NCBI GenBank assembly: GCA_963775555.1
Contig: CAVZJJ010000004.1
Coordinates: forward strand, 2,971,601-3,035,600
Source: an uncultured Bacteroidota bacterium
GTDB taxonomy: Bacteria; Bacteroidota; Bacteroidia; AKYH767-A; 2013-40CM-41-45
Reading direction: 5' to 3'
Length of the DNA stretch: 64,000 nucleotides
Shown: positions 10,695 to 41,964 of the stretch, piece by piece
Position numbering within the stretch: the stretch's first letter is position 1
Layout: each line of letters opens with the position of its first letter
The notes under the pieces: generated by a model
What the model saw: the letters and a program-made list of their open reading frames with translations, nothing else
What the model was told of the DNA's origin: nothing
Databases searched by the model: none
Position numbers and translations under genes: made by a program

Positions 10695-10695
10695 T

Positions 10696-12238: not shown

Positions 12239-12250
12239 AAAAACAATACC

Positions 12251-22628: not shown

Positions 22629-25600
22629 CTATGGCTTTTGCACGCTTATATTCAGGTTGAGATTATTTTCAATCAGACTAAAATCCATAGTCTCAACAAA
22701 GAAATCACCTGTAAGATCATGGAAATTATATTCCGATAAAAACTGCCCGGTTGCGTTTTGCAATTCATAAAAATCGGATAAATTGATTTGCCCATCAGGC
22801 ACCCCTCCGACGACACCATTGCTGATATCGCCACTATAAAATGCATAGACTCCAGGCTCGACAGTGACTTGATTAGAGCCAAATGCCTTGTTTGCGGCAC
22901 TGGCAAAATTATATAGTCCATTGGAAATAAGTGTCACAGGACTTCCGCTCCATGTTTCAAGTGCATTCCTGTGTTTGACAACAATATAATAACTCTTGCC
23001 CAGAGAATTCGAATTCAGTATAAAGTGTCCGATCCCGTTTACGTTTATCGTTCCGCAACAGCTTTCAATTAAAACATAGGGAGGAACAGAATTATGTAAT
23101 TCCAACGTCACTGTATCGCAAAGAGTCGGATACAATGCAGCGTTCACTGCCGCCCTCATTATCCCGTTACCCACAAAGTAGCCTTGAATAAACATTTTTA
23201 AACTATAGCCAAAGGTGCAATTCATAATACTTATATCCGATCCATTGTCGACCCCTACGGTAACCGGTGCCGAGGTAATGATTCTAATCCGATAGCCTGA
23301 ACCATTGCCAATATTAGATGGTATGATGCCAGTAATAGTTCCCCCACTGGTTCCCGAAAAAGTTCCAATTGTAATTGGACTGGAAAAAACACCCAATGAG
23401 TTACTCAGTTGAGCAGTGAAAACATTCCCTGAATTATAAGTACAATTCACGGTATATGGAATATTTACTGTACTATTTGTACACAAGGAAGATGAAATTC
23501 CACCGACTGCGATTGTAGCCTGGTTAAGAGTTACAGTAACAATTGCCGTATCCTGAGCTGATATACCAGACAATTGATGAGTGACAGTTAATACATATTG
23601 CTGTGTGCTGGTTGGTGATGCTGTCGGATTACTTACAATAGCTGAACTCAAACCTATTGAAGGCGACCAACTATAGTCGATTCCCGAGGTTGGGGCAGAT
23701 CCTATTGATGTAGAACTTCCTGCACAAATTGTTTTATCCACTCCGGCTTCTGCCATGACAGTCGCATTGACAGAAACATTATCGATAAATAAATTATTTC
23801 CGTACCGTGCTACGTTTCTAAAAGCAAGAAGAAACCTCTGCCCTATATATGCATTTAAATTGACACTCTCCGTCCTCCACTGGGAAGATGTGGGTACGAA
23901 GGAAGATGTTGAGTTTCCAGTTACGGTCGAGAGGCTTGCGCCTCCTGTATTATACAACTGAGTAAACGTTTGTCCACAGTCAGTAGAAATAAGTACCTGA
24001 AGTGTATCCTGGTAACTTTGGTTGGTATAACTCCAATAAGCGACATCAAATTGTAATGATATGGAGTTATAAGATTCGCCATTCATACTCGCTGTTCTTA
24101 TTTCATCCTTTTTACCTGTAGCATTTTGAGACCAATTGTTAAAATAGAAACTCTTTATGCCTGTTCCGAAACCACTTGCGCTTGAATTTAATTGCCATTT
24201 AATTCCGTCACTTGCATCATCAAATTCACTCCAATATATCGGAAGTGTACTAACACTTTCAAACGATTCACTTAAAGGCAAGTCTGAACCATTTGTATTG
24301 ATATAAGAAGTTTTAGTAATTGTGCTATTCGTGATTCCATCAGAAACGGTGAGAGTCACACTGTAAATTCCGGCAACAGAATATACGACTGTTGGATTGT
24401 CACTGGTTGAGGTTGAAGGAGAGCCTCCTGGAAAACTCCATGACCAGGATACAGGATTTCCGGCTGAAAAATCACTGAATTGCACAGAGCTACCGAGGCA
24501 AGGGTAATTGGTGTTTACGGTAAAATCTGCAAGTAAAGTATGAACACCAGAAATTGGCGACTCCCATATTCCTCTTCCATATGTTGCTACCCTAAGGATA
24601 GTATTAGCAGTACTGTCGTTGTAAATTGACATATCAACAACAGTAGTACGGGATGGAAGATTCTGATTGAATATAGTCCAGGCGGAATGATTCACCTGTT
24701 TATAATAAACCGTATTGTCACTTGCGATAAAAACCAATTCGTTTGACGAATAGTACTCATCAGCCAAAATTCGCGTGTGATTGACCGAAGGTAAATTCGA
24801 AGTAATATTAGTCCAGCTGGCACCATTATCGGCAGAACGATAAACCTTTGTATTGCATGTAATATAGATAGTATTGGGGGAATTTTTTATTGAGGTAATA
24901 CTTGCCGCACTGCCTGTTCCATTAGGCAAGGTATAGGATGCAAAAGTCGGAGTTGCACTGAGCGCATTTATAGAAACATAAATCATGGCATCCGATGTTA
25001 TCACATAAAGCCGATTGGGATCCGCGAAAGAACTATGCATAGCCATTATTTTCTTGTTCAGGTCCGCGATTTGGGTCCAGGAAGGAGTTGATGTCCTGAG
25101 ATTTGTGGTACGGAGAATAACAGTATCACCAACGAATGCAAGATCAGGATTGCTTCTGTGAAATACGATATCCTGCAAGAGGGTCACCCGTGGAGGTAAA
25201 CCATACGTTGCATCACTCCCGTTTACCAATCTACGCTTATTGATATTATGATAATATACCATTGAGCTGCCTGGACGATAATCGAAACTGCATTCACTGG
25301 ACCAATCACCGCCACGATTGGTAAACCATCCCGCTGAACTTGCATATAGTTCTCCATTATCCTGCGTACCAATACTGACCATGTCTCTACGGGTAGGGCT
25401 ACAGTTGCCGTGATAAATTTCATATCCTGCAATTCCATCACTTTTCGGATTCCATGAAGTGCCTCCGTTTGTACTCAGCCAAACTCCTCCATCATTCATG
25501 TTGTAGAGTTGAGTACTATTGTATGGATTTTCTACAATTTGATGCATATCAGTATGAACTGTAGCCCACCAGTCTGTCTGTTGAGTCCAGTTCAAACCAC

Positions 25601-26555
25601 CATCCGTTGATTTCCAGACACAATGTGCAACGTACCACAGAATATTGGGATTCGTCCGGTCAACACCAATGCCATGGTTGTAATCGCCTTGACCTGAACT
25701 AGCTGAACTATTTGTGTAATAAGAAATGTAAGGTGAGGAAGAAGTTTTTTGTGCAGTAAAAGTTGTACCACCGTCTATTGATTTGTAGATCATCCCTCCG
25801 TTCGCTACCATAGCGAGATAAACCACATTACTATCTGAAGGTGTTACTGCAATGCGAACTCCATTTCCATTGCTCACTCCTGAAGGCAAAACTATACCAG
25901 AGCTGATTTGTGTCCATGTGTCACCAAAATTCGTTGACCGGAAAAAAGCAGAATCAGTTGTAGCGGCAAATAAAGTGCGGGTAGTAGAGTTTTCCTTTAA
26001 TTTAAGGTCATCGAAAGTTCGGGCATTCGAAGTAAGAGTCCAGGAACTTCCTGCATCCAGTGTTTTAAAAATACCTGCATTGGTTGCAGCAACGATGGTG
26101 TTTTGATTCGTAGGATCCATGATCATCTCCACCACCAGCTTCCCCGACAGTCCTGAAGGCACAAAAGTATTTCCCCCATCTGTCGACTTCCAAACACCAC
26201 TTCCAGAATAATAATAATTGTGATCACCTGTACCCAGATAAATTACCTGGTCATTTGTAAAATCCACACACACAGAAGCAAGACGGGCATAAGGCATGAA
26301 GTCTGTCCCTGGTGCAACAATCCAATTGGCGCCTCCATTCGAAGTAATAAACAAACCACCACGGGCACTTATAGCATACATTTTATTTGGATTAGTCGGA
26401 TGAAATTTCAATTGACTTACACGACTAATTCCATGAATCTGCCCACTGGCATTTGTCGGGAACGATGCAGGCAACAACGCACTCCAGTTCGACTGCGCAA
26501 ATGAATGCGAAATTGTCAAAAAGAAAAACAATAGAATTTTAACAAATACTCTCAC
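22629..26555 (-). CDS. Secreted 1308-aa protein with a BNR/Asp-box beta-propeller region, PKD and Ig-like domains.
   Basis: Signal peptide. Repeated SxDxGxTW/F motifs (STDGGNTF, SIDGGTTF, STDGGLNW, STNGGTSW, SADNGASW). PKD-like segment WSWSFPGGSPSTS...YSVTLTVSDG. Confidence 0.55.
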   Translation of the reverse strand: MRVFVKILLFFFLTISHSFAQSNWSALLPASFPTNASGQIHGISRVSQLKFHPTNPNKMYAISARGGLFITSNGGANWIVAPGTDFMPYARLASVCVDFTNDQVIYLGTGDHNYYYSGSGVWKSTDGGNTFVPSGLSGKLVVEMIMDPTNQNTIVAATNAGIFKTLDAGSSWTLTSNARTFDDLKLKENSTTRTLFAATTDSAFFRSTNFGDTWTQISSGIVLPSGVSNGNGVRIAVTPSDSNVVYLAMVANGGMIYKSIDGGTTFTAQKTSSSPYISYYTNSSASSGQGDYNHGIGVDRTNPNILWYVAHCVWKSTDGGLNWTQQTDWWATVHTDMHQIVENPYNSTQLYNMNDGGVWLSTNGGTSWNPKSDGIAGYEIYHGNCSPTRRDMVSIGTQDNGELYASSAGWFTNRGGDWSSECSFDYRPGSSMVYYHNINKRRLVNGSDATYGLPPRVTLLQDIVFHRSNPDLAFVGDTVILRTTNLRTSTPSWTQIADLNKKIMAMHSSFADPNRLYVITSDAMIYVSINALSATPTFASYTLPNGTGSAASITSIKNSPNTIYITCNTKVYRSADNGASWTNITSNLPSVNHTRILADEYYSSNELVFIASDNTVYYKQVNHSAWTIFNQNLPSRTTVVDMSIYNDSTANTILRVATYGRGIWESPISGVHTLLADFTVNTNYPCLGSSVQFSDFSAGNPVSWSWSFPGGSPSTSTSDNPTVVYSVAGIYSVTLTVSDGITNSTITKTSYINTNGSDLPLSESFESVSTLPIYWSEFDDASDGIKWQLNSSASGFGTGIKSFYFNNWSQNATGKKDEIRTASMNGESYNSISLQFDVAYWSYTNQSYQDTLQVLISTDCGQTFTQLYNTGGASLSTVTGNSTSSFVPTSSQWRTESVNLNAYIGQRFLLAFRNVARYGNNLFIDNVSVNATVMAEAGVDKTICAGSSTSIGSAPTSGIDYSWSPSIGLSSAIVSNPTASPTSTQQYVLTVTHQLSGISAQDTAIVTVTLNQATIAVGGISSSLCTNSTVNIPYTVNCTYNSGNVFTAQLSNSLGVFSSPITIGTFSGTSGGTITGIIPSNIGNGSGYRIRIITSAPVTVGVDNGSDISIMNCTFGYSLKMFIQGYFVGNGIMRAAVNAALYPTLCDTVTLELHNSVPPYVLIESCCGTINVNGIGHFILNSNSLGKSYYIVVKHRNALETWSGSPVTLISNGLYNFASAANKAFGSNQVTVEPGVYAFYSGDISNGVVGGVPDGQINLSDFYELQNATGQFLSEYNFHDLTGDFFVETMDFSLIENNLNLNISVQKP

Positions 26556-27677: not shown

Positions 27678-28337
27678 TTGGGAAAAAAAATGAAGCAAAC
27701 ACCTGCTAAAATTGTATCTTTATATTTCAAATTCGCTTTTTTGAAAACACATTTAGTCATTTTAAGCATCTTATTCGTGATTCCGGCATGGGCTTATAGC
27801 CAAACTGAATACAAGCCAAAATATTCCCCACGCAAGGAAAAACACAGAAACAAAAGAGATGAATTGGATCGCAAGCAAGGCCTTTGGAAACACTACAATT
27901 ACTTAGGTACTCTCATTCAGGAGGTAGAATACCTGGATGATAAACGGAATGGAATTCAAAGACTTTATTATGGGAATGGAAGGGTGATGAGGGAAACAGA
28001 GTACCTATATGGTATTAAAGACGGTTCATTCAAAAGATATAGTTATGATGGTTTAGCAACAGAAGGTGAATATGTCGAAGGGAAGAAACAAAATCAATGG
28101 ACTAATTATTACAGTAGCGGACAGATAAAAAACACCGGGTTTTATTTGAAGGGCTATAAGGATGGCATCTGGAAATATTACAATCGGAAGGGAGAACAAA
28201 TAAACACCATAGTTTTCAAGGGCGGCAGGGACGTGCAGGAAATTCTGGAAGCAGAAAAGAAAGCTGCTGACGCAAAGAAAGCTACAGAAGCAAAAAAACA
28301 AGCCGAGAAAAAAGAACTCTATAGAAAGTATAAATAA
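27678..28337 (+). CDS. MORN-variant / YwqK-family repeat protein with an N-terminal signal/anchor and a KA-rich C-terminal tail.
   Basis: Repeats of the form GxWKxYYxNGxxxxExxYxxGKKxGxW. C-terminal EAEKKAADAKKATEAKKQAEKK. Confidence 0.5.
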   Translation: MGKKMKQTPAKIVSLYFKFAFLKTHLVILSILFVIPAWAYSQTEYKPKYSPRKEKHRNKRDELDRKQGLWKHYNYLGTLIQEVEYLDDKRNGIQRLYYGNGRVMRETEYLYGIKDGSFKRYSYDGLATEGEYVEGKKQNQWTNYYSSGQIKNTGFYLKGYKDGIWKYYNRKGEQINTIVFKGGRDVQEILEAEKKAADAKKATEAKKQAEKKELYRKYK

Positions 28338-28509
28338 GTAGTTGCAAATAAAAGCGATCCTGACCTGAACAGATCGTTGACAGAATAATAAATTGCCGGC
28401 AAAATAAACTATTCGACAGTATACTCAACTAAAATAAAAGAATGCAAACTTTTTCCGGATAAGAATCCACAGAAAAAGTAACCAATGAGGAGTGTATTCT
28501 TGAAGTTAC

Positions 28510-29172
28510 TTATTTAATATGGCAACTCAAACAAATAGCGGAACCCTGATTGCTCATGGTCAATAAATATCCATTGGGGTTGCTGTGAACCAGGTGACAA
28601 GAAGTACACTGAATCTTACTATTGGCATCCAATAAATCCTGCACTCGTTTAGTACCTGAATAAATGTGCGTTTTGTCCCATACGCCACCGGCTTGCAATG
28701 AGTCGTACACAAAAGAAATAGGGTGATCATCGCGCAGACTCAAGCCAATCTTTGCATCACTGGTCATACGTGCAAACCCTGTTTGTCCGCCAAAAGCACC
28801 CAAGGCTACCGAACCATCATGACAGGAAAGGCACAATTTAGAAGTTCCGTCAGGAGCTGTTACCCCATAACCAGCACCTCCGGGGCCAAATTCAAAACCG
28901 GTGTACATTTGATAAGTCGCAGTTGTAAAAGCGTGGTTCCAAAGTGGAGCAGCTGTAATTGAAAGGTCGGCATTGTGTGGAGTGTGACAAGGCTGGCAAA
29001 TCTGTCCACCCATCATTGTAGTTGCATTATATGCATTCCACTGAACTGAGGAAAAATCATGGACTGAGCCGGCAATTGAAGTTGTTATTGCGCCGGGACC
29101 AAAATAGGTTTGACTACTACTTAATAAAGGGAGAGTAAAGCCTAGTAATACGATAATAAATATTTTTTTCAT
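28510..29172 (-). CDS. Secreted tetraheme c-type cytochrome (4 CxxCH motifs, doubled-CXXCH-like).
   Basis: Signal peptide. CQPCH, CLSCH, CTSCH and CLSCH motifs in 220 aa. Confidence 0.6.
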   Translation of the reverse strand: MKKIFIIVLLGFTLPLLSSSQTYFGPGAITTSIAGSVHDFSSVQWNAYNATTMMGGQICQPCHTPHNADLSITAAPLWNHAFTTATYQMYTGFEFGPGGAGYGVTAPDGTSKLCLSCHDGSVALGAFGGQTGFARMTSDAKIGLSLRDDHPISFVYDSLQAGGVWDKTHIYSGTKRVQDLLDANSKIQCTSCHLVHSNPNGYLLTMSNQGSAICLSCHIK

Positions 29173-29553
29173 GGTTACGTTGGTGGTTGGAATTTATTCA
29201 AGTGGTTGTAGTGGTTAAAAACTTCATATGTACACAGTGCATCAATATTAAAATTGTAGAAAACAGGTAAGAGAAAAACAGCTTTCATACAACCAACGAA
29301 TCTAGATCAATTTGTCAAAAAGCGGCATGACGGAAATCTTGTTTAAACCTGTATTTTGTCGCAATAATAACTGCGAAAACGCAGATATTTCCCGGGGATA
29401 ATCTTTGGATGTAAGTACTGTTATAGAACTTCCAAAACAGGGTCTATCGACAATCGTCTGATAAATCTTTGCCAAAATGCAGTCCTTTCAACGGCTTTTG
29501 TCATAGTCAAACCGGCAAATTTTCAATTTCTTTGCTATATTAATCATAACCTC

Positions 29554-30308
29554 ATGCTTTTTACCAAAAATGGTAAGGAAGAGTTGGAAGGAAAAGCCAA
29601 CACTATATTTAAGAACATTGAACTGCATCATTACTGCACTGAGGATCAAAAAAAACTCATTACTGACAATTTAAGCTGCAGAAATTACCACAAAGGAGAA
29701 TTGATTTTCTATGAAGGGCAGCCCTCTTACCTGATCTATTTTGTGTACTCAGGGGCAATTAAACTTTGGAAAGAAGGATTACATAAGGTTGAACAAGTTA
29801 TTCGATTCTCCAAAGAAGGAGACATGCTTGGATTCTGGGCTTCCCTGAAAATAAAAATTACACTTTGTCCGCTACCGCATTGGTTGATTGCCAATTATTC
29901 CATATCCGGAAAGATATATTTCTACCTATAGTGCAGGCCAATTCTGCTTTAAATTTAGTTCTACATGATTACATCATTGAATTAAAAAAAACAGAAGAGG
30001 ATTTAAGAAATATGGCAGAGATGAATGTCCGGGAAAAAGTTGCACATTCTCTTCTTGAATTACTTTCCTTGTTCAAAAACAGCATGGACGAAGAGGCCTA
30101 CAAAACCGTTTTGTCAAGAAAAGAAATATCCGCCTTGTCGGCAGTGAGTGAAGACAGGATAAGTAAGCAATTATCTGAATTTAAAAAGGAAAACATAATC
30201 AAAACTGAAGGTCACAGTACTTTCATTGACCGAAACGCTTTGCAGGAAATAATCAAGCCATATCTATCTCTTCAAAACACCTTGATTTTTTTAAATTTTT
30301 TTATTTAA
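29554..30308 (+). pseudogene. Crp/Fnr-family transcriptional regulator, paralog 1, split by a -1 frameshift in an A-run near 29848-29851.
   Basis: ORF 29554-29931 covers the cNMP-binding half and ORF 29865-30308 covers the HTH half. Restoring one A gives SLKNKNYTLSATALVDCQLFHIRKDIF, collinear with paralog 2. Confidence 0.6.
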
Positions 30309-30386
30309 GGCCCTTTTAATGGAGAAGTCTGCTTCTCATCACTTTTAATGATTGATTTTATTTATTGAACCTCGGAATTCCCTATT

Positions 30387-30434
30387 CCGACAAATGTCTC
30401 CTTTTTTATCGCCCACAAACTTTAGTTTGTTCGG
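30387..30434. promoter_or_regulatory. Palindromic noncoding element downstream of Crp paralog 1: CCGACAAATGTC ... ACAAACTttAGTTTGT ... TTTGTTCGG.
   Basis: GACAaaTGTC palindrome. A nested perfect inverted repeat ACAAACT/AGTTTGT. An outer inverted repeat CCGACAAA/TTTGTTCGG. Confidence 0.4.
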
Positions 30435-30640
30435 CTTTGGACAACTCTCAGCGTACCACATGTTGTTTCTTTGCATAGGTATTTGTCGCTAATTCTTATT
30501 AAAAGACGAACAAATACGGTAGGTATCATAAACCAAACCGATGCAAGCATGAAACGAATTCTGATTTATCTGCTGATTTCTGCTCTAAAACGATAAAAAT
30601 ATTCAATCAGTCACTTGCCAAAAAAATAAAATTCCTCAAA

Positions 30641-31414
30641 ATGGCACACCCAAATTCTAAAACATCTTACTTCAATATGATATCCGCAAGAAATGCAAAT
30701 CAAGATATAGATAGCAAAGTTAAAACTATCTTTAAAAACAGCTCTCTCAATCAGAGTTGCACAGAAGAACAGAAAAACCTGATTGTAGAAAATATGAGTA
30801 GCAGGAATTACCATAAGGGGGAAGTTATTTTCTACGAAGGGCAGCCATCATTTCTTATCTACTTTATCTACTCCGGAGTAATAAAACTGTGGAAAGAAGG
30901 ATTACATAAAGATGGACAGATCATCCGCTTTGCAAAGGAAGGCGACATGATGGGCTTCTGGGGGTCTCTGGAAAACGCCAATTATTCTTTAACGGCTACA
31001 GCAATCACGGATGCCCAATTGGTCTATATTAAAAAGGATATTTTCCTACCGGTGGTTCAAACTAATTCGGCACTTAGCACCATTCTTCATGACTATATTA
31101 AAGAACTTAAAAAAACGGAAGAAGACCTAAGAAACATGGCCGACATGAATGTCAGGGAAAAGGTAGCACACTCCATTTTAGTTTTGCTTAACCTTTTCAA
31201 AAATAAAATGGATGAGATCGCCTTTAGAATAGTCTTATCCAGAAAAGAGATCGCTGCATTATCAGCAATATGCGAGGATCGGGTGAGTAAACAGTTATCT
31301 GATTTCAAAAAAGAGAAAATAATAATAGTAAACGGCAAAAATGTATTCATCGATCAAAATGCATTAAAAAAGATCGTACCCATTGCCAATCTTATGGATC
31401 ATGGCAATCGCTAA
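30641..31414 (+). CDS. Crp/Fnr-family transcriptional regulator, paralog 2 (intact).
   Basis: cNMP-binding domain (YHKGEVIFYEGQP...GFWGSL) plus a C-terminal HTH (VLSRKEIAALSAICEDRVSKQLS). About 70% identical to paralog 1. Confidence 0.75.
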   Translation: MAHPNSKTSYFNMISARNANQDIDSKVKTIFKNSSLNQSCTEEQKNLIVENMSSRNYHKGEVIFYEGQPSFLIYFIYSGVIKLWKEGLHKDGQIIRFAKEGDMMGFWGSLENANYSLTATAITDAQLVYIKKDIFLPVVQTNSALSTILHDYIKELKKTEEDLRNMADMNVREKVAHSILVLLNLFKNKMDEIAFRIVLSRKEIAALSAICEDRVSKQLSDFKKEKIIIVNGKNVFIDQNALKKIVPIANLMDHGNR

Positions 31415-31842
31415 GCTGGTAAGCCATTCATTATATTAATTGAGACTAACAATTTGGGGGTTTCTCAAGGTAGTTAATCCACAAGTCTTCAATTCTATGA
31501 ACCATGATTCGACCAGGGTTAAGAATAGTTCCGGATATTCGAATCTATTAATTTATTTCCCTTTTTCAGCAGTTTTAAGAATAGATAAATTTGCAATAGC
31601 ATTACACCCGGCTTTTATATTTTTATAAATCTTTTGTACTGAATATATGCTACGGTCTGTTTACTTACCCTGATATTTCCAGAAAAACCCTTACCAATGT
31701 CTAATGACATCAAGGCAAAATGTGGCTCTGCCCAGGTTTGCCTTTTTTCATGTTTGATGCTTTCATTTTCTTCAAATAACCACACTTCTTTTCTCAGGCA
31801 GGCAAAATTCAAGAGCAAGGTTTTTTAAAATAAAATGTGGAT

Positions 31843-31914
31843 CCCGACAAATGTCGCTGACACGAAAGGCCACAAACTAACTTTTGTCCGTCAACGAACA
31901 ATGTTTTTTATCGG
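31843..31914. promoter_or_regulatory. Second copy of the same palindromic element, downstream of Crp paralog 2 and about 260 bp upstream of the NrfC-like gene.
   Basis: CCCGACAAATGTC ... CACAAACTaacTTTTGTCCG ... TTTTTTATCGG, collinear with the copy at 30387-30434. Confidence 0.4.
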
Positions 31915-32109
31915 GCATGCCACCATCTTTACACCGTGAAATTAGATTCCATCAATACAAATAAGAAGATGATACAGAGCGAAAATCTTTGTTTCACAAA
32001 ATTTGAAACTGCTGAATACTTATCCGGCATGACATTTTTCCACTTCCCGATGCAATCAATTATAAAAGCTGGCACTAATTGTATACATATATAATAGAGA
32101 AATAATTTT

Positions 32110-33057
32110 ATGGAAACTGAAAATAACAATTCAAACTCTAATGAGAAACGTTCAAGCCGCCGGGGCTTTCTGAAATTAGGACTGTTAGCCGGTGGAGCCG
32201 CCTTAGCGGCAACAGAAGTTACGAAACTTCTTGGACAAACCCCTGATGAATCAGGAGAGAAAGTAAAACTCCTGACAAAAGACGGAAAACTTGTTGAAGT
32301 ACCGGGCTCACAAGTCAAAGAGGTTCCCATTGAAAAATTTTCCGGTGAAAAGGTTAGAAAAGGTATCCCCGGAAAAAAATTCGTACGGGTGATCGACCTT
32401 TCCAGATGCGCCAATGAAAGAGCCTGCGTGGAAGGCTGTCAGAAAAAGCACAACTTACTTCCACCGGTAGAATGGATCAAAGTAAAAAAAATGCAGGATG
32501 TCGAGTTGGAATCTCCTTATTGGCTTCCTCAAATGTGTTACCACTGCGACAATCCCCCTTGCACTAAGGTTTGCCCTGTTGATGCTACCTTCAAAAGAAG
32601 CGATGGCATCGTTGCTATTGATGCTGAGCGCTGCATAGGTTGCAAATTCTGTATGGCAGCCTGTCCATATTCAGCACGTACATTCAATTTTGGACGACCA
32701 GAGCAGACTGCATATTTTGAAAAACACAAAGATGATCCGGGCAAATGTCCATCAAGTGATCCAAGTGTGGTCGGCACCGTGTCAAAATGCGACGGCTGTC
32801 CGGATGAAATGGCTAAAGGAATCCTTCCGCAATGCGTAAAGAAATGTCCTAATGGTGCAATATACTATGGCGATGAAATTGAAGATGTGGTATCCAATGG
32901 TGAAGATGTATTTCAACTTACCGCTTTACTGACCGAAAGGGCCGGCTACCGCCAATTTGATGCATTAGGTACTAAACCAAGGGTTTATTATTTGCCTCCG
33001 GTGAAGAGAATTTTCCCATTCCAGGATGCAACTGAAAAACATAATACCATAGAATAA
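32110..33057 (+). CDS. Tat-exported 4x[4Fe-4S] ferredoxin-type subunit (NrfC/PsrB/DmsB/ActB-like).
   Basis: Twin-arginine signal SRRGFLKLGLLAGGAALAAT. Four Cys clusters (CYHCDNPPCTKVCP, CIGCKFCMAACP, CDGCPDE...CVKKCP and an N-terminal variant). Confidence 0.75.
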   Translation: METENNNSNSNEKRSSRRGFLKLGLLAGGAALAATEVTKLLGQTPDESGEKVKLLTKDGKLVEVPGSQVKEVPIEKFSGEKVRKGIPGKKFVRVIDLSRCANERACVEGCQKKHNLLPPVEWIKVKKMQDVELESPYWLPQMCYHCDNPPCTKVCPVDATFKRSDGIVAIDAERCIGCKFCMAACPYSARTFNFGRPEQTAYFEKHKDDPGKCPSSDPSVVGTVSKCDGCPDEMAKGILPQCVKKCPNGAIYYGDEIEDVVSNGEDVFQLTALLTERAGYRQFDALGTKPRVYYLPPVKRIFPFQDATEKHNTIE

Positions 33058-33094
33058 CAGAACTATCAAAAACCAAAAAAACAACTAAATAAAA

Positions 33095-34573
33095 ATGGAA
33101 AATCCAACAATTGCGTATAGATACGGAGTAACGGAAAAGTTGAGGTTAAAACTCCGACAGGAAGAAGCACACCGTCAGGCTCTGGAAAATGGCATGAAGG
33201 AGGACTATACCTCTGCTTCCGAAATAAAGATAACAGAAAAGTACAATGTGATGGAGAAAGACTTGCTTCACCCAATTCAAAAAATTGGTGTTGCGGGGAA
33301 AGTATGGATTGGCTTTCTGATAGCTGTTGTGTTGGCTGGACTTTATGCATATTATTTACAGGAATCTAAAAGTAAATACGAAACAATCGCCTTGCGCGAC
33401 TACGTCATGTGGGGTGTTTACATTTCCACTTTTGTGTTCTATGTTGCCCTTAGTCTTGTAGGCGCATTAATGTCGGCCATACTGAAGTTAATAAATTTCG
33501 AATGGTATCGGCCCTTAGCCCGGATCGCTGAAATAATTGCAGTATCGGCAATAATCATGGCGGGAATTTGTATCGTAGCCGCAATGGGAAAACCCGACAG
33601 GTTACATTACCTGCTTCTTTACGGAAGAATCCAATCACCAATTGTTTGGGACGTAATTGTAATCGTTACTTACATTTTCCTCAGCTGTTTATTTTTATTC
33701 ATGGCTCTGTTACCTGAGATAACTATCTGCCGTGACCGTCTCACCAATATTCCTGCCTGGCAAAAATGGTTATATCGAAACCTTTCTTTCGGCTGGACCG
33801 GTGCACCTGAACAATGGAAAATTGTAAAAAGGAGCGTCAAACTTTTAGCCATCATGGTAATACCGGTTGGAGTCTCCATTCATACAGTAACTGCCTGGTT
33901 GTTCGCAACAACTTTGCGGGCTGAATGGGACAGCACTAACTTCGGACCCTATTTTGTATCAGGAGCGTTTTTATTAGGTGCTGCAGCGATGATTGTTGCA
34001 GTATTCATTTTCCGTAAGGCATATCACTTCGAAAAATACCTGACCACGAAACATTTTAACAGCATGGGTATTATGTTGGTTTTCCTGGCCCTGTGCTATA
34101 CATACTTTAATGTAAATGAATACCTGGTTCCTTCATATAAAATGAGCGGATTACATGCGAATCACCTGCTTGATTTATTTGTAGGAGAAACAGCTCCTAT
34201 GTACTGGATGGTAGCGTTCTTTGGATTCATCATTCCTGCTACCCTTCCAATGTTCCCTGCAATGCGCAAACCGGTACCTCTAACCATCATCGCATTAACT
34301 ACTGTCATTGCAGCATGGTTCAAACGATATTTAATTGTTATCCCCGGACTTTCTCATCCATATCTCCCTATTCAGGATGTACCTCAATCATGGATGCATT
34401 ACACTCCAAGTCTTGTGGAAATGACAGTTGTTATAGGTACACTGGCAGCAATGCTGTTAATTATCACATTATTCTCAAGATTGTTTCCAATTATTTCGAT
34501 CTGGGAAGTTGCAGAAGGAGAAGGAGTTAAAATCGAAAATATTAATCAACCGGCTAAAGTCAAAAAAGTATGA
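33095..34573 (+). CDS. NrfD/PsrC-family integral membrane quinol-interacting subunit (ActC-like).
   Basis: 492-aa protein with about 10 TM helices. Sits directly after the NrfC-like gene. Confidence 0.7.
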   Translation: MENPTIAYRYGVTEKLRLKLRQEEAHRQALENGMKEDYTSASEIKITEKYNVMEKDLLHPIQKIGVAGKVWIGFLIAVVLAGLYAYYLQESKSKYETIALRDYVMWGVYISTFVFYVALSLVGALMSAILKLINFEWYRPLARIAEIIAVSAIIMAGICIVAAMGKPDRLHYLLLYGRIQSPIVWDVIVIVTYIFLSCLFLFMALLPEITICRDRLTNIPAWQKWLYRNLSFGWTGAPEQWKIVKRSVKLLAIMVIPVGVSIHTVTAWLFATTLRAEWDSTNFGPYFVSGAFLLGAAAMIVAVFIFRKAYHFEKYLTTKHFNSMGIMLVFLALCYTYFNVNEYLVPSYKMSGLHANHLLDLFVGETAPMYWMVAFFGFIIPATLPMFPAMRKPVPLTIIALTTVIAAWFKRYLIVIPGLSHPYLPIQDVPQSWMHYTPSLVEMTVVIGTLAAMLLIITLFSRLFPIISIWEVAEGEGVKIENINQPAKVKKV

Positions 34574-35139
34574 AAAATTATTTAAAAAGCAGCCTGCTTC
34601 GCAATTGTTTACTGCTCGTTGCACTATCAACACCCGCTTGTTTATTCGCACAAGAGGACGAAATGAAAATCAAATTAGACTTAGCGATAGAAGACAGCGT
34701 CAGGGTTTGTAATGCAATCGTCACAGATGCCGACTCAAAACCACTTAGCGGAGTATCCGTAAATTTTTACATAAAACGTAGCGTTGGTTTACTGCCGATT
34801 GCACGCATGGAAAACACAGATGAAAATGGGGCAGCGAGCGCTGCATTTCCTTCAAAAATTCCCGGAGACAGCCTTGGAAATGTTACTGTTATTGCAAGTC
34901 TTGAAGACGATGACGCTATTGCGGACCAAAAAATTATTGCATGGGGTACTAAAACGGTTTATACAAATCACCTTGATCAACGATCTCTTTGGGCTTCAAG
35001 GTCAAATGCGCCAACATACCTGATTATCGCTTCTAATACAATCATATTAGGTATCTGGGGTACCGCGGGGTATATCCTTTATATGTTATTCTTCAAAATG
35101 AAAAAGAGTGGATTTAATTATAATCCAAAACAAAAATAA
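34570..35139 (+). CDS. Secreted protein with an Ig-like/carboxypeptidase-regulatory-like fold and a C-terminal TM anchor, translationally coupled to the NrfD-like gene.
   Basis: ATGA overlap with the upstream gene. Signal peptide. C-terminal hydrophobic helix IIASNTIILGIWGTAGYILYMLFF. Confidence 0.4.
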   Translation: MKNYLKSSLLRNCLLLVALSTPACLFAQEDEMKIKLDLAIEDSVRVCNAIVTDADSKPLSGVSVNFYIKRSVGLLPIARMENTDENGAASAAFPSKIPGDSLGNVTVIASLEDDDAIADQKIIAWGTKTVYTNHLDQRSLWASRSNAPTYLIIASNTIILGIWGTAGYILYMLFFKMKKSGFNYNPKQK

Positions 35140-35176
35140 TTTCAGTTCATCAATCAAACAACTAAATATTAAAGTT

Positions 35177-35647
35177 ATGAAAAATGTAATCACAAAATCA
35201 GCACTATTCCTGGTAGGAATAACTGTTGCGAGTATTCTGGCATTTGGTCCCGTCATTTTAGCAGGCGATGATCCGGCAGCAAAACAAACTGGCAAACCTT
35301 GGCCATGTCCTGAAAGCTATGCAAAAATGGAGAACCCTATTAAACCTGAGAAAGGCATCCTGGACGCCGGAAAAGACGTATGGGAAAGTCATTGTAAATC
35401 TTGTCATGGAAAAACAGGAAGAGGAGATGGCACAAAAGCCAAAAATCTTGATATCACTTGCGGAGATTTTAGTTCTGAAGAGTATCAAAGCAAAAGCGAC
35501 GGTGAATTATTCTGGAGAGTCACCGAAGGAAGGAAACCAATGCCTACCAATAAAGACAAAATATCTGACATAGAAAGATGGTCAGTGATATTGTACACAC
35601 GCACTTTTGCAAAGAAAGCTGATGATGCCCAAATACTCATTCAATAA
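35177..35647 (+). CDS. Monoheme c-type cytochrome (copy 1).
   Basis: Signal peptide. CKSCHGKTGRGDGT heme-binding motif. MPTNKD Met-ligand region. Confidence 0.65.
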   Translation: MKNVITKSALFLVGITVASILAFGPVILAGDDPAAKQTGKPWPCPESYAKMENPIKPEKGILDAGKDVWESHCKSCHGKTGRGDGTKAKNLDITCGDFSSEEYQSKSDGELFWRVTEGRKPMPTNKDKISDIERWSVILYTRTFAKKADDAQILIQ

Positions 35648-35757
35648 TAAACACAAGAGCAGTGTGAAGGGCTGCATCTTGTGCTCAATTGTAATCTTTG
35701 AATAAATTTAATAACGCTTAAAAGGATTATTAACTATTAATCACAATTAAATCAATT

Positions 35758-36189
35758 ATGAAAACATCAATTAGAAATCTGAAAACCTTCCTTGTAGGAA
35801 TTACTTTAACCGGTTTAGTATTTTACGGATCAAATTCCCTGGCGGGAGATGACAAGCCCGCAGGAAAACCATGGCCATGCCCTGAGAAAAATGCAAGTAT
35901 GACAAGTCCTGTAAAGGCAGATGCAAGCACGATTGCCGCAGGAAAAGAATTGTGGAGCTTGCATTGCAAGTCTTGTCATGGAAAAACCGGCTTAGGTGAC
36001 GGAACAAAAGCAGAGAGCATAGAAATCTCCTGCGGTGATTTTACTTCGGACAGCTATCAAAAACAATCCGATGGAGAACTTTTCTGGAAAACAACAGAAG
36101 GTAGAAAACCAATGCCTTCTTTTAAACAGAAACTATCCGAAACAGAAAGCTGGTCGATTATATTGTATACAAGGACATTCAAAAAATAA
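35758..36189 (+). CDS. Monoheme c-type cytochrome (copy 2, a tandem paralog).
   Basis: CKSCHGKTGLGDGT. Collinear with copy 1 (KPWPCPE...ELFW...TEGRKPMP...SWSIILYTRTF). Confidence 0.65.
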   Translation: MKTSIRNLKTFLVGITLTGLVFYGSNSLAGDDKPAGKPWPCPEKNASMTSPVKADASTIAAGKELWSLHCKSCHGKTGLGDGTKAESIEISCGDFTSDSYQKQSDGELFWKTTEGRKPMPSFKQKLSETESWSIILYTRTFKK

Positions 36190-36555
36190 AGTCCAATTTA
36201 AATGGACCTAAACCGGTTCCTGAACAAGCAATTTTTTATATAATGCAAAATTTACTCTTAATATTTTCTGAATTTTTCGGGTTATAAAGAAGAAATAAAA
36301 ACCCTTCAACCGGGTGTAGCATCAAAATTTAGTTGTTTGATGTCTATGCCCGGTCTTTTTTTTGACGGTCTTCAATTCAGAATGGATAACCAATGGCAAT
36401 GTTCCAGATTAAATTTTCCCGGCGCCATGATGAACTTCCAAAAGATATTTTATCTACTACCCATCGATCCGCTTCAGGCAACCATGGTTTACGCAGGGGA
36501 AAATCCCCGTCGAGTCGAAGGATAATAAAAGTAAAATATATTAATCGTTTTTTAT

Positions 36556-37068
36556 CTACTCTTTAATAAACCTCTTCAACGAAATTCCATTCCCTGAAAC
36601 AATTTTCAAAAAATAAACTCCGGGCAAGAGCTTCGAAGTATTCAGCACCGCAAATTCTCCATGATTAGCAACCGAAATTGGAAGACTTATCTGCTGAGAC
36701 ATCGCATTATAAACAACTACCCCCACTGAAATAGTTGAAGCCGGCTTATGGACATACAAAACATTTAGTACCGGATTTGGAAATATTGAAAATGGCGTTA
36801 AGGGTTTAGTAATTCCTGTATTGAGCACAATCAATGGAACTGACGAATAGGAACAGCCGGATTGAAGAGTAACTTTCACTTGATAGCTTCCCTGCTGATT
36901 GATCACCAGAAATGAATCAACACCTGAGCTGATCAGTGTACTGTCCAAAAACCAATCATAGTATATTCCTGATAGGTTCGTAAAAAGAGTATCCCCTGAA
37001 ATAGTCAGCACAGGATAAGGTGCCGGTTCCAAGGAAACAGTGTCACTATTTATTGGACAAGAAAACAA
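36556..37068 (-). pseudogene. Gene remnant: the C-terminal piece of a T9SS cargo protein (beta-sandwich plus a type-A CTD) with no signal peptide or N-terminal region.
   Basis: Ends in the canonical CTD IFPNPVLNVLYV...LLPGVYFLKIVSGNGISLKRFIKE. Only about 170 bp lie upstream before the next gene. No secretion signal. Confidence 0.4.
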
Positions 37069-37242
37069 ATACGTATAAATATTTTGATACCCGAAAAGTT
37101 CAGCTTACAAGGCCGTCAAGGGCGAAATGACCGTAAACACGGGCTTTCCCACAACATTCCCTGACGAGGTTTTCAGATTCAATGAACACAATTTCATCCG
37201 GGTGATTGCAATACCCTGTCTGAAGGTTCAAATTGAGAATAA

Positions 37243-38790
37243 TTATTTAAATAATTTTCTCGTGAATGCAGTCTGGTTAGTTTCTACCCTGATAAAATAA
37301 ATTCCGTTTGGCAGCCCTGAAACCGAAAAATCATTTTTAGAATATTCATTTACTAATTTTCCCTGCATGTTAAAAAGTTCAATCTGTTTTATTTTTTGCT
37401 TGCCGGTAAATACATGAACCGTTTCTGTAGACCTATTCAAAGAAACAGCAAATTCATCTGTAGAATAAACCGGAGACTTATTGCTGGTTATATTGTCCAG
37501 ATTTGCTTTCCGAAAATAGATGTCTTCCTTAGTCATTCCATTATTGCGGTTATCCGACCAAACACTATATACATCATTCGTCGTCAAAGCAACTCCCAGA
37601 AAATCATTTCCACGGACAAGATTGATGAACGGGGAAGGGATTGAACTTAAGCAGTAATTGGGTGAGAAACTAAAACCTCCATTTGTAGAAGTAGCAGTAT
37701 AAATTTCATAGTCGGAGGTGTCGTTCGAAAGTCCATTTCTTCTGTCACGCCAAACAACCGCGTAAGTACCATCAGACGAAAATGATCCCCATGACATGTC
37801 TTGCCCCTTTCCGTTGTTGGTAGCATCATCATTCACCCGCACCGGAACGCTGCTCCAGGTATTCCCGCCATCCATAGAAAACAAACTAAGAATATCAGGA
37901 TCACCATATCGCGCATCAACCGCCTGGAAGATTAAATTGCCGGCGTCAGCAGGATTCGCCACCATTGAATAACTTCCCTGATATAAAGTATCAGTAATTG
38001 CAGAGCCGACTACCGGATATGTAATAGTTGTCTGCGCAAAGGTAGTTCCACCATCTGTTGATTTTGTACAAACAAATCGCGGAAAAGGATTTTGAGTAGT
38101 GTCCCAGGATGCATAGGCACAATAAAAGGTTCCATCTGCACCAACTGCAGGCGTGCCCATGATATTGTTCAGGGAACCCACCGCAACCGGATCGTCCAAA
38201 CGGACAAGTGGTGAAAACGTATTAGCGGTGTCCGTTGAAATACTAAGCCATATCTTGTGAGATACCGTAGCCGCGTAATAACTTTTTGTAACAATATAAA
38301 TCCGTCCTCCATACATAGAATTGCTTTGATCACAAACAATCCAGGGTCGGTCAATGGGCAAATCGGGTTCTGCCATTGCATTAGCAGCATTTACAGGATT
38401 ACTCCATGAGATTCCGCCGTCAACGGATTTGGCTACACGAACAAAACCTGAATCAAGCGACAACTTATAGTCTACGTAACAAATAAATGCAGTTCCGGAA
38501 AGATTGAACGCCAGAGATACATCCGCGGAAGTGATCAGAATATTTCCGGAAAAATGCGGGAGGTAATTTACATTTCCCCAGGTAACGCCACCGTCGAAAG
38601 AAGATTTAGTTGCAATTCCCGGAGGATACGAGACAGACATCCAGGCAGCGATCAGGTTATCGGGATTTGCCGGATTTATCGCTATAAAAGGTTCTGTTTC
38701 GCGGGCGATAGTAGCGCTGATATTCAAGTCCGTTTGAGAGAAACAAAAAAGGGACATATTAAATAAAACAAACAATAATACATACTTCAT
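37243..38790 (-). CDS. T9SS-secreted BNR/Asp-box (sialidase-like) beta-propeller protein.
   Basis: Signal peptide. Repeats SFDGGVTW, SVDGGISW, STDGGTTF, SMDGGNTW, STNGGFSF. C-terminal CTD (LPNGIYFIRVETNQTAFTRKLFK). Confidence 0.6.
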   Translation of the reverse strand: MKYVLLFVLFNMSLFCFSQTDLNISATIARETEPFIAINPANPDNLIAAWMSVSYPPGIATKSSFDGGVTWGNVNYLPHFSGNILITSADVSLAFNLSGTAFICYVDYKLSLDSGFVRVAKSVDGGISWSNPVNAANAMAEPDLPIDRPWIVCDQSNSMYGGRIYIVTKSYYAATVSHKIWLSISTDTANTFSPLVRLDDPVAVGSLNNIMGTPAVGADGTFYCAYASWDTTQNPFPRFVCTKSTDGGTTFAQTTITYPVVGSAITDTLYQGSYSMVANPADAGNLIFQAVDARYGDPDILSLFSMDGGNTWSSVPVRVNDDATNNGKGQDMSWGSFSSDGTYAVVWRDRRNGLSNDTSDYEIYTATSTNGGFSFSPNYCLSSIPSPFINLVRGNDFLGVALTTNDVYSVWSDNRNNGMTKEDIYFRKANLDNITSNKSPVYSTDEFAVSLNRSTETVHVFTGKQKIKQIELFNMQGKLVNEYSKNDFSVSGLPNGIYFIRVETNQTAFTRKLFK

Positions 38791-39176
38791 GGGCTCAGCG
38801 CATTTTATTATTCAGGATGAAACCATCTACAAGATACAAATTATATTAAGCCGATTTTATTAATAAGCAAGACTTAATCTACAAAAATCATCAGAAAGAG
38901 TTTTCAGGGAGGTGTTTGCAGAACCTTCTCCTTAATTTATAGTCACTTATAGTATAGCTCTTCTCCAACATAAGACTCAGAGACATTGTGTTGTGATAAA
39001 TATTTTCATACATTTACTTTTCTCATGGCTTGTAATTAAGCTAATTCAGAAGGTAAATTAATCTGAATACAATTCCTTTTAAAGCTAAAGGATTCAACAT
39101 ATTCATTTTAATTTTCTATATTTCACTTTTAAGATCAATAATTCGTAGGTTTATCTATAAATAAATTCATACAATC

Positions 39177-40493
39177 ATGACCAAACTTCTACTCTCAGCC
39201 CTGTTTATCTTATCAATCATAAGTACCTCAATAGCGGCTACAGGTTCCTCCTGTAATTGTTGGCTCACCCGTGATTCCACGTGGTCTGTTGTAGCTTTCG
39301 ATGGTTCTGGTGGTTCGGGAGGTCCCGGCCTTCCTCCTGATTACAGGAACGATGACTGGTCGAGTGACACGATAGGGCTACCTTTTATTTTCTGTTTCTA
39401 TGGTGATACCATTACGGAAGTTTACATCAACAATAATGGAAATATCTCGTTTGGCTCTCCTTATTCAACATTTACTGCTAATTCTTTCCCTGATTCCACT
39501 TATTCCATGATCGCGCCCTTATGGTCTGATGTCGATACACGAGGTGCATTAAGTGGTGTTGTCTATTATAAGGTTTTCTCTGGTGGGCTTGTAGTGCAGT
39601 GGGATCATGTAGGTTATTTCGATAGCTATGATGACAAATTGAATACCTATCAGTTAATTATTACGGATGGAAATTCAAATCTTCTTCCGGAACAAAAAAA
39701 TGTGGGCTTCTGCTATAAGGACATGCAATGGACAACCGGTGATGCCTCTGGTGGTTCTGGCGGATTTGGAGGGACTCCTGCAACAGCAGGTGTCAACTTT
39801 GGAGATGGAATTAATTATATTCAATTAGGCCTTTATGATAATAATACGTTTGCATATGACGGCCCCTTTGGTAACAACGACGGAGTGCTTTCGCTTTCAA
39901 ATCAATCTTTCATTTTTAATGTCTGCGTAAGCAATTTCAATGTGCCTCCCATTCTTAGTGGAGATTTCATTTGTGATACGATTCAACTTTGTTTAGGAGA
40001 CACATTTGTTTACGAAGCGGATTTTCTCTCGCCTGAACAAACACAAATCACATCTGTCTCCATTGATGCCCATGGCCTTTCAGGTGTAAACCTTGTGACA
40101 AGCCCCGGAAATCCTGCCAATGTCCAGGTTTCTATGGTTGCAGCTTCTGTCGGGTATTATATCGTCGACGTAATTGGAACAGACAATGGTTCACCAGCCG
40201 GTACAACGGTATACTCGCTTCTTATGGACATTACTAATTGCACAGTAGGAATAGACGAAAAAGAGATAAACACACTTATGCCTTATCCGAACCCTGTACA
40301 CGATCATCTCACGCTGGATCTAAGTAATGCTTCGAACAGAATTCGAATCAGTACGCCAGAAGGCCTGATCATTTACGAAGGATTTTCTTCGGGCAAGACA
40401 ACAATCAATACATCCGATTGGCCGGGCGGAATCTACTTTGTAAATGTGCAATCAGAAAAACAGCAGAGTACCGTTAAAATTCTAAAAAACTAG
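39177..40493 (+). CDS. T9SS-secreted protein with an N-terminal NIDO (nidogen-like) domain.
   Basis: YINNNGNISFGSP...IAPLWSDVDTRG...VYYK matches the NIDO hallmark (IAPFWADVDTR). C-terminal CTD YPNPVHDHLTL...GGIYFVNVQSEKQQSTVKILKN. Confidence 0.5.
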   Translation: MTKLLLSALFILSIISTSIAATGSSCNCWLTRDSTWSVVAFDGSGGSGGPGLPPDYRNDDWSSDTIGLPFIFCFYGDTITEVYINNNGNISFGSPYSTFTANSFPDSTYSMIAPLWSDVDTRGALSGVVYYKVFSGGLVVQWDHVGYFDSYDDKLNTYQLIITDGNSNLLPEQKNVGFCYKDMQWTTGDASGGSGGFGGTPATAGVNFGDGINYIQLGLYDNNTFAYDGPFGNNDGVLSLSNQSFIFNVCVSNFNVPPILSGDFICDTIQLCLGDTFVYEADFLSPEQTQITSVSIDAHGLSGVNLVTSPGNPANVQVSMVAASVGYYIVDVIGTDNGSPAGTTVYSLLMDITNCTVGIDEKEINTLMPYPNPVHDHLTLDLSNASNRIRISTPEGLIIYEGFSSGKTTINTSDWPGGIYFVNVQSEKQQSTVKILKN

Positions 40494-41931: not shown

Positions 41932-41964
41932 TTTAAACTTTTATAATAGTCTAAGGGCAGCTGT

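Follow-up and report, generated by a model that had tools for sequence, protein, structure and literature searches.

A compact ActC-like module proposed to carry electrons from menaquinol to cytochrome c in an uncultured Bacteroidota bacterium

We analysed a 64-kb stretch of DNA (the window) from the ~3.07-Mb genome of an uncultured Bacteroidota bacterium (GenBank assembly GCA_963775555.1, contig CAVZJJ010000004.1, positions 2,971,601 to 3,035,600). Consecutive plus-strand genes between 32110 and 36189 encode an NrfC-like iron-sulfur (FeS) subunit, an NrfD-like membrane subunit, an anchored protein that we call subunit X and two monoheme cytochromes c, and their products probably constitute a compact menaquinol:cytochrome c oxidoreductase. 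We favour menaquinol oxidation with cytochrome c as the acceptor because the membrane subunit is related to ActC of alternative complex III (ACIII), because relatives of the module adjoin genes for caa3-type oxidases or Nap, and because its cytochrome is of a high-potential type. To our knowledge, ACIII is the only quinol:cytochrome c oxidoreductase other than bc1. Its mechanism is unsettled with respect to the empty B1 domain, the roles of ActF and ActD, and a wire of clusters FeS2-4 that seems to lead nowhere. A natural minimal relative, made of an FeS subunit, an ActC-like subunit, a cytochrome and a new anchor, would be a simple test system for these questions.

An FeS-NrfD-X-cytochrome c module related to ActC

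Genes were identified from an open reading frame (ORF) listing combined with Pfam and NCBIfam scans, which bore out the genes described in an earlier, sequence-only reading of this DNA. The NrfC-like FeS subunit (32110-33057, plus strand; 315 amino acids (aa)) matches Pfam Fer4_11 and related families and carries the twin-arginine translocation (Tat) motif SRRGFLKLG. It is followed on the same strand by the NrfD-like, ActC-like membrane subunit (33095-34573; 492 aa, ~10 transmembrane helices; Pfam NrfD, 93 bits) and by subunit X, an anchored protein with an immunoglobulin (Ig)-like fold (34570-35139; 189 aa), whose start ATG overlaps the nrfD stop TGA (ATGA), predicting translational coupling. 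Two monoheme class I cytochrome c genes complete the plus-strand series, copy 1 at 35177-35647 (Pfam Cytochrome_CBB3 and Cytochrom_C) and copy 2 at 35758-36189 (143 aa; also matched by Pfam), and the alignment of their products marks them as paralogues with 58% identity. Copy 1 probably starts at ATG 35177 rather than at GTG 35108: in the ORF that begins with GTG, only the residues from 24 onwards align with copy 2. Between the two cytochrome genes, a spacer of 110 nt contains an inverted repeat, CACAAGA...TCTTGTG (35655-35690), perhaps a site of attenuation within the operon or of processing; an Rfam scan of 28000-37300 gave zero matches.

The closest structural relatives of the NrfD-like protein are the ActC chains. 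Searched against PDB sequences, it matched only four ActC chains of ACIII significantly (142-164 bits), ActF appeared at E=5, and PsrC was not matched even at E<=10. An AlphaFold model of the protein (predicted local distance difference test (pLDDT) score of 76) again retrieved ActC chains as the best Foldseek hits (TM-score 0.77-0.85), followed by ActF (0.5-0.68), with PsrC at rank 20. The suggestion of the sequence-only reading that this is a stripped-down relative of ACIII is thus supported. To compare residues, we aligned 89 family members with four ActC sequences and mapped them onto Rhodothermus marinus ActC (PMC5928083). The quinol-pocket or channel residues W82, I86, F89, D169, R119, E122, Y176, H247, Y270, E326 and R395 of that protein (PMC5928083) are kept in 80-89 of the 89 members, and S180 is conserved as well. 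In the numbering of the window protein, the quinol-pocket residues W106, I110, F113 and D186 are all conserved. Other sites that are invariant in ActC are exchanged throughout the family (H97→L, P136→I, D253→L, Y323→N and E394→K), and ActC H139 is replaced by D in 72 of the 89 members and by A in 12, the window protein included. In a neighbour-joining tree, the midpoint root separates all 89 members from the four ActC structures. On these grounds, namely a separate clade across the midpoint root and changed signature residues, we read the NrfD-like protein as a member of an ActC-like sister family and not as an ActC orthologue. ActC was the sole outgroup of this tree, which contains no other NrfD families, and this makes it the weakest step of the sister-family claim.

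The FeS subunit also resembles its ACIII counterpart. All 15 predicted cluster cysteines are kept in 71 of 71 NrfC-like homologues, the second cysteine of motif I (CxxCxxCxxxC) is never a cysteine, and 61 of the 71 carry a Tat RRxF motif. From this ligand pattern, the protein is predicted to carry one [3Fe-4S] and three [4Fe-4S] clusters, the set that ActB is reported to have and that has been predicted for QrcC (PMC5928083, PMC6303296). Its PDB matches include PsrB, ArrB and the C-terminal domain of ActB. The 315-aa protein shows Fer4 domains only in Pfam and has no molybdopterin-like B1 domain. The best NCBIfam model is DsrO, with 163 bits against a cut-off of 200; the NrfC model scores 102 bits (cut-off 378), QrcC (NF041782) 99 bits (cut-off 400), and TtrB and ArrB stay far under their cut-offs. 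The NrfD-like protein likewise reaches 106 bits with DsrP, for which the cut-off is 350. Together with the position of the membrane subunit in a clade of its own, these scores indicate that the pair falls outside the characterised families.

Subunit X is a new component. Its AlphaFold model (pLDDT 70) shows an Ig-like sandwich of seven strands, preceded by an N-terminal signal or transmembrane helix and followed by a transmembrane helix at the C-terminus. Apart from a sub-threshold match to Big_1, searches of Pfam, NCBIfam and PDB sequences returned nothing for X, and Foldseek found generic Ig and macroglobulin folds only, with no ACIII subunit among them. We considered X as an analogue of ActD or ActH and found support for neither in sequence or fold. 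A profile search of 1.84 billion proteins retrieved 871 representative clusters at 50% identity, and in most relatives X is longer (~300 aa) and matches the profile in two stretches. The cytochromes are of the class I c552/ActE type: for copy 2, the best PDB matches are c552 proteins (7o9u, 9vr0; ~2e-15), and ActE (6btm_E, 6f0k_E) is matched more weakly (9e-8).

Recurrence of the module and its partners in relatives

Homologues of the NrfD-like protein number thousands, and the module is widespread among uncultured bacteria. The best 120 are 64-88% identical, the named hosts among these being Bacteroidia or Bacteroidota metagenome-assembled genomes (MAGs), and a distant relative with 44% identity occurs in a Candidatus Sysuimicrobiota MAG. 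A metagenome scan with an alignment query found at least 569 relatives, of which 80 loci were retrieved and mapped by ORF calling and BLAST, and a single-protein query of genome contigs gave 3 loci (handles of loci begin with L). The gene order (Crp) - FeS - NrfD - ~160-190-aa protein - cytochrome c is seen in the contexts of P0028, P0008 and P0021. The NrfC-like gene lies immediately 5' of NrfD in 66 of 68 loci, both exceptions being ORF-calling artefacts, and X is found 3' of NrfD or fused in 71 of 82 loci (free in 58, fused to cytochrome c in 12 and to NrfD in 1). A cytochrome c is encoded within four genes of 66 of the 90 NrfD genes, usually as a single copy rather than the two seen here. 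Because the order NrfC-NrfD-X-cytochrome c recurs in ~80 independent loci, the arrangement is far beyond chance. The fusions, including an NrfD-X protein of 674 aa in P0021, and those of cytochrome c with X, argue that the four proteins form one complex.

Two variations of the layout were observed. Six loci (L022, L024, L025, L038, L083 and L087) contain two complete NrfC-NrfD-X(-cytochrome c) modules in tandem, and the second NrfD paralogue of these loci is ~32-42% identical to the window protein and occupies its own deep branch. A 76-100-aa ORF is located just 5' of the nrfC-like gene in L077 (4624-4872), L051, L056, L061, L064, L073 and L082; it resembles the NrfC-like N-terminus, with a Tat-like signal and a 'V(K/Q)xLTxDGxLVEVD' segment.

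The genes that follow the module in some relatives point to its likely electron acceptors. In one subclade, a caa3-type oxidase operon lies directly 3' of the module (L028, L029, L034, L050, L055, L074, L078, L079 and L086); in L029, with genes named from Pfam and NCBIfam, it reads SCO1/SenC-CtaD (668 bits)-COX3-COX4-CoxB with a C-terminal cytochrome c domain (12999-17489). In L027, genes for NapA (929 aa, 1406 bits), NapG and NapH stand directly 3' of the module (7864-12296), and L085 has at the same place an ORF cut by the contig end (5794-7779) with a NapA-type N-terminus near-identical to that of L027. These contexts, together with the NrfD-X and cytochrome c-X fusions, support the hand-off from an NrfCD core to c-type cytochromes that the sequence-only reading had envisaged, and the module seems to be a general hub with different partners in different genomes.

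The same reading had noted the lack of a molybdopterin catalytic subunit, and this held up on a wider view. Among the large ORFs of the window scanned against Pfam, a set that left out the 2,894-aa minus-strand ORF at 13400-22084, none is of molybdopterin type, and none lies beside the module in the ~80 loci except for the nap genes of L027 and L085. We rejected the 929-aa ORF of L027 as the module's own molybdopterin subunit, as it is NapA accompanied by its own NapGH. ORFs of ~850-900 aa located 5' in the oxidase-linked loci were also considered as candidates and were dismissed, their N-termini being CarboxypepD_reg-like or TPR-like. These results bear on the possibility that the module is the FeS/anchor pair of an ordinary Psr, Phs, Ttr, Nrf, Dsr or ACIII complex whose catalytic or heme subunit is encoded elsewhere. 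The best NCBIfam models would suit such a pair (DsrO and DsrP, then TtrB, ArrB and NrfC), as would the database label 'molybdoenzyme membrane anchor subunit' given to homologues, and our view is limited to 64 kb of ~3.07 Mb. All of these named models score far below their curated cut-offs, however, and PsrC lacks a sequence match. Moreover, ~80 loci keep X and cytochrome c, the fusions of X and cytochrome c define the module's own partners, and molybdopterin subunits, NrfA, DsrMKJ, ActA, ActB1, ActD and ActF are never conserved neighbours. We therefore regard this explanation as very improbable.

The 5' side of the module is occupied in many relatives by a trio of genes that encode an EB_dh heme-domain protein, a small cytochrome-like protein and a DUF5777 'membrane bound beta barrel' protein, as in L001 (6323-9016), L077 (2054-4636) and L020 (2907-6566). 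The EB_dh protein sometimes includes a cytochrome c domain, and the small protein has ~125-134 aa with a CX4CH or CxxCH motif. A literature search found no description of DUF5777. Together, the three proteins may form a redox unit in the outer membrane that is coupled to the module.

Such a unit could also run in the uptake direction. In that case the module would work in reverse, like Qrc, as a cytochrome c:menaquinone oxidoreductase fed by a periplasmic or outer-membrane donor, with the frequent EB_dh, small CX4CH cytochrome and DUF5777 proteins as a possible electron-uptake unit in the outer membrane. Qrc demonstrates that quinone reduction is within the reach of NrfCD-type modules (PMC6303296), and reverse flow has been proposed for ACIII-like clusters of Fe oxidisers (PMC4643136). 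The window itself has no EB_dh or DUF5777 genes, though, and the QrcC model scores far under its cut-off. A class I c552-type cytochrome is normally far more positive than menaquinone, so that reverse flow would need an input of proton motive force, and the operon continuity with caa3 oxidase or Nap genes in relatives fits the forward direction. On balance, we consider reverse flow decidedly unlikely.

Regulators, tetraheme cytochrome and genomic surroundings

Two Crp/Fnr-family regulator genes precede the module on the plus strand. Copy 2 (30641-31414; 257 aa) is intact and has Pfam cNMP_binding and HTH_Crp_2 domains, which in copy 1 (29554-30308) are split over two ORFs. The alignment of both copies shows that copy 1 is one G short at 29846/29847 (CTGAA versus CTGGAA in copy 2), and repair of this position gives an ORF of 251 aa. 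Copy 1 is either a pseudogene or the product of a sequencing or assembly error. The duplicated regulators of the sequence-only reading are present, with this 1-nt deletion in one of them. In L004 and L006 neither copy is interrupted, and throughout the clade closest to the window (L004, L006, L044 and L007/L008) one or two orthologous Crp regulators lie 5' of the module. A terminator-like hairpin (30322-30337) follows copy 1.

A search of the upstream regions for regulator sites, as proposed with the sequence-only reading, revealed a conserved element that ties the regulators to the operon. The palindrome GACAnnTGTC has just two copies in the whole window, at 30389 and 31846, each in intergenic DNA of the cluster. 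The first site, GACAAATGTC-N13-CCCACAA (30389-30418, plus strand), lies 252 nt 5' of crp copy 2, and the second, GACAAATGTC-N13-GCCACAA (31846-31875, plus strand), 264 nt 5' of the start of the nrfC-like gene. Across 1.09 Mb of sequence (window plus loci), the 30-nt pattern GACAWWTGTC-N13-(A/C)CCACAAAC has six copies, all of which are on the coding strand, intergenic and 5' of crp or nrfC-like genes: besides the two in the window, these are in L004 (3323 and 4394), L006 (7780) and L044 (635). An extra copy with one mismatch lies between crp2 and nrfC in L006. With its 5' flank, the conserved stretch extends over ~30-40 nt and reads yyGACAAWTGTC-N13-(A/C)CCACAAAC. A TAnnTTTG-like Bacteroidetes -7 box is found ~20 nt 3' of the element, a geometry that resembles a class II activator site. 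The positions of the copies support the element as a candidate operator/promoter of the Crp-family regulators, which would imply both co-regulation with the module and autoregulation. Small ORFs called between crp2 and nrfC in L004 and L006 were dismissed as genes, their similarity to the window being that of the conserved DNA element and not of a protein. A scan for sigma-70 promoters performed at chance (25 found versus 26 expected), and its model is unsuited to Bacteroidetes.

Redox control of the Fnr type, as had been suggested, is not borne out. The regulators have no FNR-type N-terminal cysteine cluster, copy 2 having one cysteine in its first 50 residues, and one copy is frameshifted. 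The Fnr model gives 56 bits on copy 2 against a cut-off of 228, and the CRP model is also far under its cut-off. A regulator in L003 does carry a CxxCxxxxC...C N-terminus.

The gene that precedes the regulators encodes an OmcE-family tetraheme c-type cytochrome (28510-29172, minus strand; 220 aa; Pfam Paired_CXXCH_1). The sequence-only reading had placed a secreted tetraheme cytochrome immediately upstream of the module; its four CxxCH motifs and general secretory (Sec) signal were confirmed, and the gene proved to be transcribed divergently from crp copy 1, ~380 nt away and opposite in orientation to the operon, and to belong to a family whose linkage to the module is not conserved. HMMER aligned the protein over its full length to 7tfs_A (E 9.5e-19) and 9yuq_N (E 3e-16), with all four CxxCH motifs and the distal histidines H38, H66, H149 and H196 in OmcE register. 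7TFS is the OmcE nanowire filament of Geobacter sulfurreducens (PMC12954529) and 9YUQ an OmcE bundle of Desulfuromonas soudanensis (bioRxiv 10.1101/2025.10.22.684050). The latter study lists OmcE homologues in five phyla, Bacteroidota not among them, and defines a hallmark omcE cluster in which two multihemes are accompanied by beta-propeller lipoproteins and a large beta-barrel (bioRxiv 10.1101/2025.10.22.684050). In our searches, the tetraheme family is large in the FCB group, with >5400 matches. The likeness of the window protein to OmcE (7TFS, 9YUQ) lies in full-length homology and in the shared four CxxCH motifs and four distal histidines; it differs from OmcE in its phylum and in that the hallmark neighbours are absent around 28510-29172. 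Surroundings that resemble the hallmark cluster were encountered in other Bacteroidia. The OmcE homologues of P0141 and P0156 are accompanied by beta-propeller-like proteins, ~650-700-aa proteins and further multihemes, and that of P0136 lies beside an NHL beta-propeller protein. The stretches concerned include L091 (10001-17314; ~650-700-aa proteins, multihemes, beta-propeller/NHL) and L089 (2785-5322; beta-propeller/NHL).

The tetraheme gene raises the possibility that the module serves, in the inner membrane, as the quinol dehydrogenase for a multiheme electron export route that ends in the OmcE-like cytochrome, possibly as a filament, or in other multihemes. CymA, ImcH and Cbc of metal reducers would be analogous, and genome papers have proposed such a role for stand-alone NrfCD modules (PMC3534657, PMC9386147). 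The full-length homology to OmcE with all eight heme ligands aligned and the divergent position ~380 nt from crp1 are in keeping with export, as are several relatives: L003 encodes, ~3 kb 3' of the module, an NHL-repeat protein, an 11-heme cytochrome with an OmcE-like N-terminus and an Fnr-like regulator, multihemes adjoin the module in L014, L031 and L070, and many relatives have the EB_dh, small-cytochrome and DUF5777 genes on their 5' side. Set against this, an OmcE-like gene is linked to the module in only 2 of ~85 loci, and none of the closest OmcE-like homologues (82%, 74% and 56% identity) adjoins an NrfCD-type module. The window has neither the hallmark omcE genes nor another multiheme, the tetraheme protein has no C-terminal domain of the type IX secretion system (T9SS) for export, and the omcE-like/crp1 intergenic region is without the conserved promoter element. 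The conserved partner of the module is instead a monoheme c of high-potential type, and some relatives are wired to an oxidase or Nap. We judge such multiheme electron export unlikely.

The remainder of the window points to a host within the Bacteroidia that has anaerobic traits. At 53-13285 it encodes Fer4 proteins, a 1256-aa PFOR-like protein, RnfC/D/G/E/A, a CitMHS transporter and ApbE, a ferredoxin-linked energy block that suggests an anaerobic or facultative host. The module is surrounded by T9SS cargo genes (Por_Secre_tail / CHU_C; 13400-26555, 36556-54867 and 62611-63825), some of them large (2894, 1381 and 1308 aa) and equipped with PKD, Sortilin/BNR and Kelch domains. A lipoprotein-like ORF of 117 aa with a single CxxCH (56021-56374, minus strand) adjoins an OmpA-family gene and an AraC regulator; it is weakly akin (~23% identity, E 6e-7) to the ~125-aa cytochromes of the EB_dh/DUF5777 set and is isolated here.

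Proposed function and comparison with known systems

In the forward reaction that we consider probable, the ActC-like subunit would oxidise menaquinol in its periplasm-facing pocket and pass the electrons to the [3Fe-4S] cluster that lies next to it in the Tat-exported FeS subunit, from where they would continue through that subunit's three [4Fe-4S] clusters. From the FeS subunit they would reach the class I monoheme cytochrome c, which Ig-like X may hold or recruit at the complex. Reduced cytochrome c would then supply the host's periplasmic or terminal reductase, as suggested by the caa3 oxidase or Nap of relatives, and the partners in the window genome could include the adjacent OmcE-family tetraheme. 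Through the GACAAWTGTC-containing element, one or both Crp-family regulators probably govern the operon as well as their own expression. Dimeric modules of the NrfCD type have been described as able to work on their own, with periplasmic proteins as electron acceptors (PMC6303296). We infer the docking role of X, the exit cluster, any proton translocation and the binding of the regulators to their site; extrapolating proton pumping from ACIII is unsafe because H139, D253 and E394 are replaced.

Several points weigh against this reading. Some of the ActC residues proposed to function in quinol binding or deprotonation (H139, D253, H97 and E394) are replaced in the family, H139 by Ala in the clade of the window. 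The proposed electron exit of ACIII leads from FeS1 over the hemes of ActA, of which the module has no equivalent. We infer the direction of electron flow from context only, and the oxidase- and Nap-linked loci that supply this context are only 46-49% identical to the window NrfD and fall into different subclades. A further point is the frameshift in one of the regulators. All members of the family are known from their sequences alone, and the terminal acceptor of the host, as well as its ACIII or bc1 status, lies outside the 64 kb that we examined.

If the reading is correct, the module may link the quinol pool to cytochrome-c-dependent oxidases and reductases in many uncultured Bacteroidota. 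Current database names of its NrfD homologues are generic ('NrfD/PsrC family molybdoenzyme membrane anchor', 'polysulfide reductase', 'HybB-like') and would skew metabolic reconstructions towards sulfur or hydrogen metabolism. A bolder version, which we think unlikely, holds that the module is a previously unrecognised, widespread 'mini complex III' of uncultured Bacteroidota and some other phyla, which performs the task of ACIII with an FeS/ActC core and the Ig-like X, that its FeS2-4 wire serves as the electron exit, and that co-regulation with the OmcE homologue creates a nanowire-like quinol-to-extracellular route. Were this true, such co-regulation would give Bacteroidia a path from quinol to the cell exterior.

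Among known NrfCD-containing systems, QrcABCD shares with the module a 10-helix NrfD-type subunit, an FeS subunit with a [3Fe-4S] cluster by the quinone site, exchange with a periplasmic c-type cytochrome and the lack of an active molybdopterin (PMC6303296). It differs by its hexaheme QrcA and its cofactor-less, molybdopterin-like QrcB, neither of which has a gene here, and in it electrons flow towards menaquinone from cytochrome c3; the module gave no QrcD-like signal. DsrMKJOP provides the top NCBIfam models (DsrO and DsrP), and DsrOP works with a c-type cytochrome, DsrJ. The scores are under the cut-offs, however, the window has no dsr genes, and DsrJ is a triheme cytochrome whereas the module has a class I monoheme one. 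NrfABCD and PsrBC resemble the module in pairing a Tat-exported four-cluster ferredoxin with a cofactor-less NrfD-family quinol site, and NrfCD feeds periplasmic cytochromes (NrfB/NrfA). The FeS subunits NrfC and PsrB carry four [4Fe-4S] clusters ligated by 16 cysteines. NrfA, NrfB and PsrA are absent from the window, neither a molybdopterin subunit of the Psr-Phs-Ttr-Arr type nor NrfA is found in it or as a conserved neighbour, and the 8-helix PsrC ranks low by fold. The Cbc-type complexes of Geobacter are further stand-alone NrfCD-plus-cytochrome modules. Stand-alone FeS and NrfD-like pairs without molybdopterin subunit have also been reported as Mros1571/1572 of Melioribacter roseus and in MBNT15 clusters (PMC3534657, PMC9386147). 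These, which we compared by description only, are alike in being proposed quinol:acceptor reductases that donate to periplasmic cytochromes; they differ in having multiheme partners and are genome-based predictions, and X, a monoheme partner, the fusions and the ActC-sister position are not described there. Our literature search, whose coverage was incomplete, found no prior description of the four-gene architecture, of X or of the fusions, beyond general mentions of stand-alone NrfCD modules.

The closest counterpart is ACIII, which we compared through the structures 6BTM, 6F0K, 6LOD and 8K9E. By sequence as well as by fold, the membrane subunit is nearest to ActC, and the FeS subunit combines a Tat signal with the cluster pattern of ActB2. 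The monoheme class I cytochrome c matches ActE, but free c552 proteins more closely. The genes for the FeS subunit, the NrfD-like subunit, the small transmembrane protein and the monoheme c are colinear with ActB2-C-D-E, and caa3 oxidase genes follow in relatives as they do in many act operons (PMC5928083). As the sequence-only reading had remarked, the composition departs from the canonical ActABCDEF: the module lacks pentaheme ActA, the molybdopterin-like B1 domain, ActD and a second NrfD-like subunit corresponding to ActF, with one NrfD per module. X is a periplasmic Ig-like protein with a C-terminal anchor and no DUF3341 match, whereas ActD is cytoplasmic with two transmembrane helices, and the NrfD-like protein falls outside the ActC clade. 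Taken together, these likenesses and differences point to ACIII as the system that the module works most like, and to the module as its compact functional analogue.

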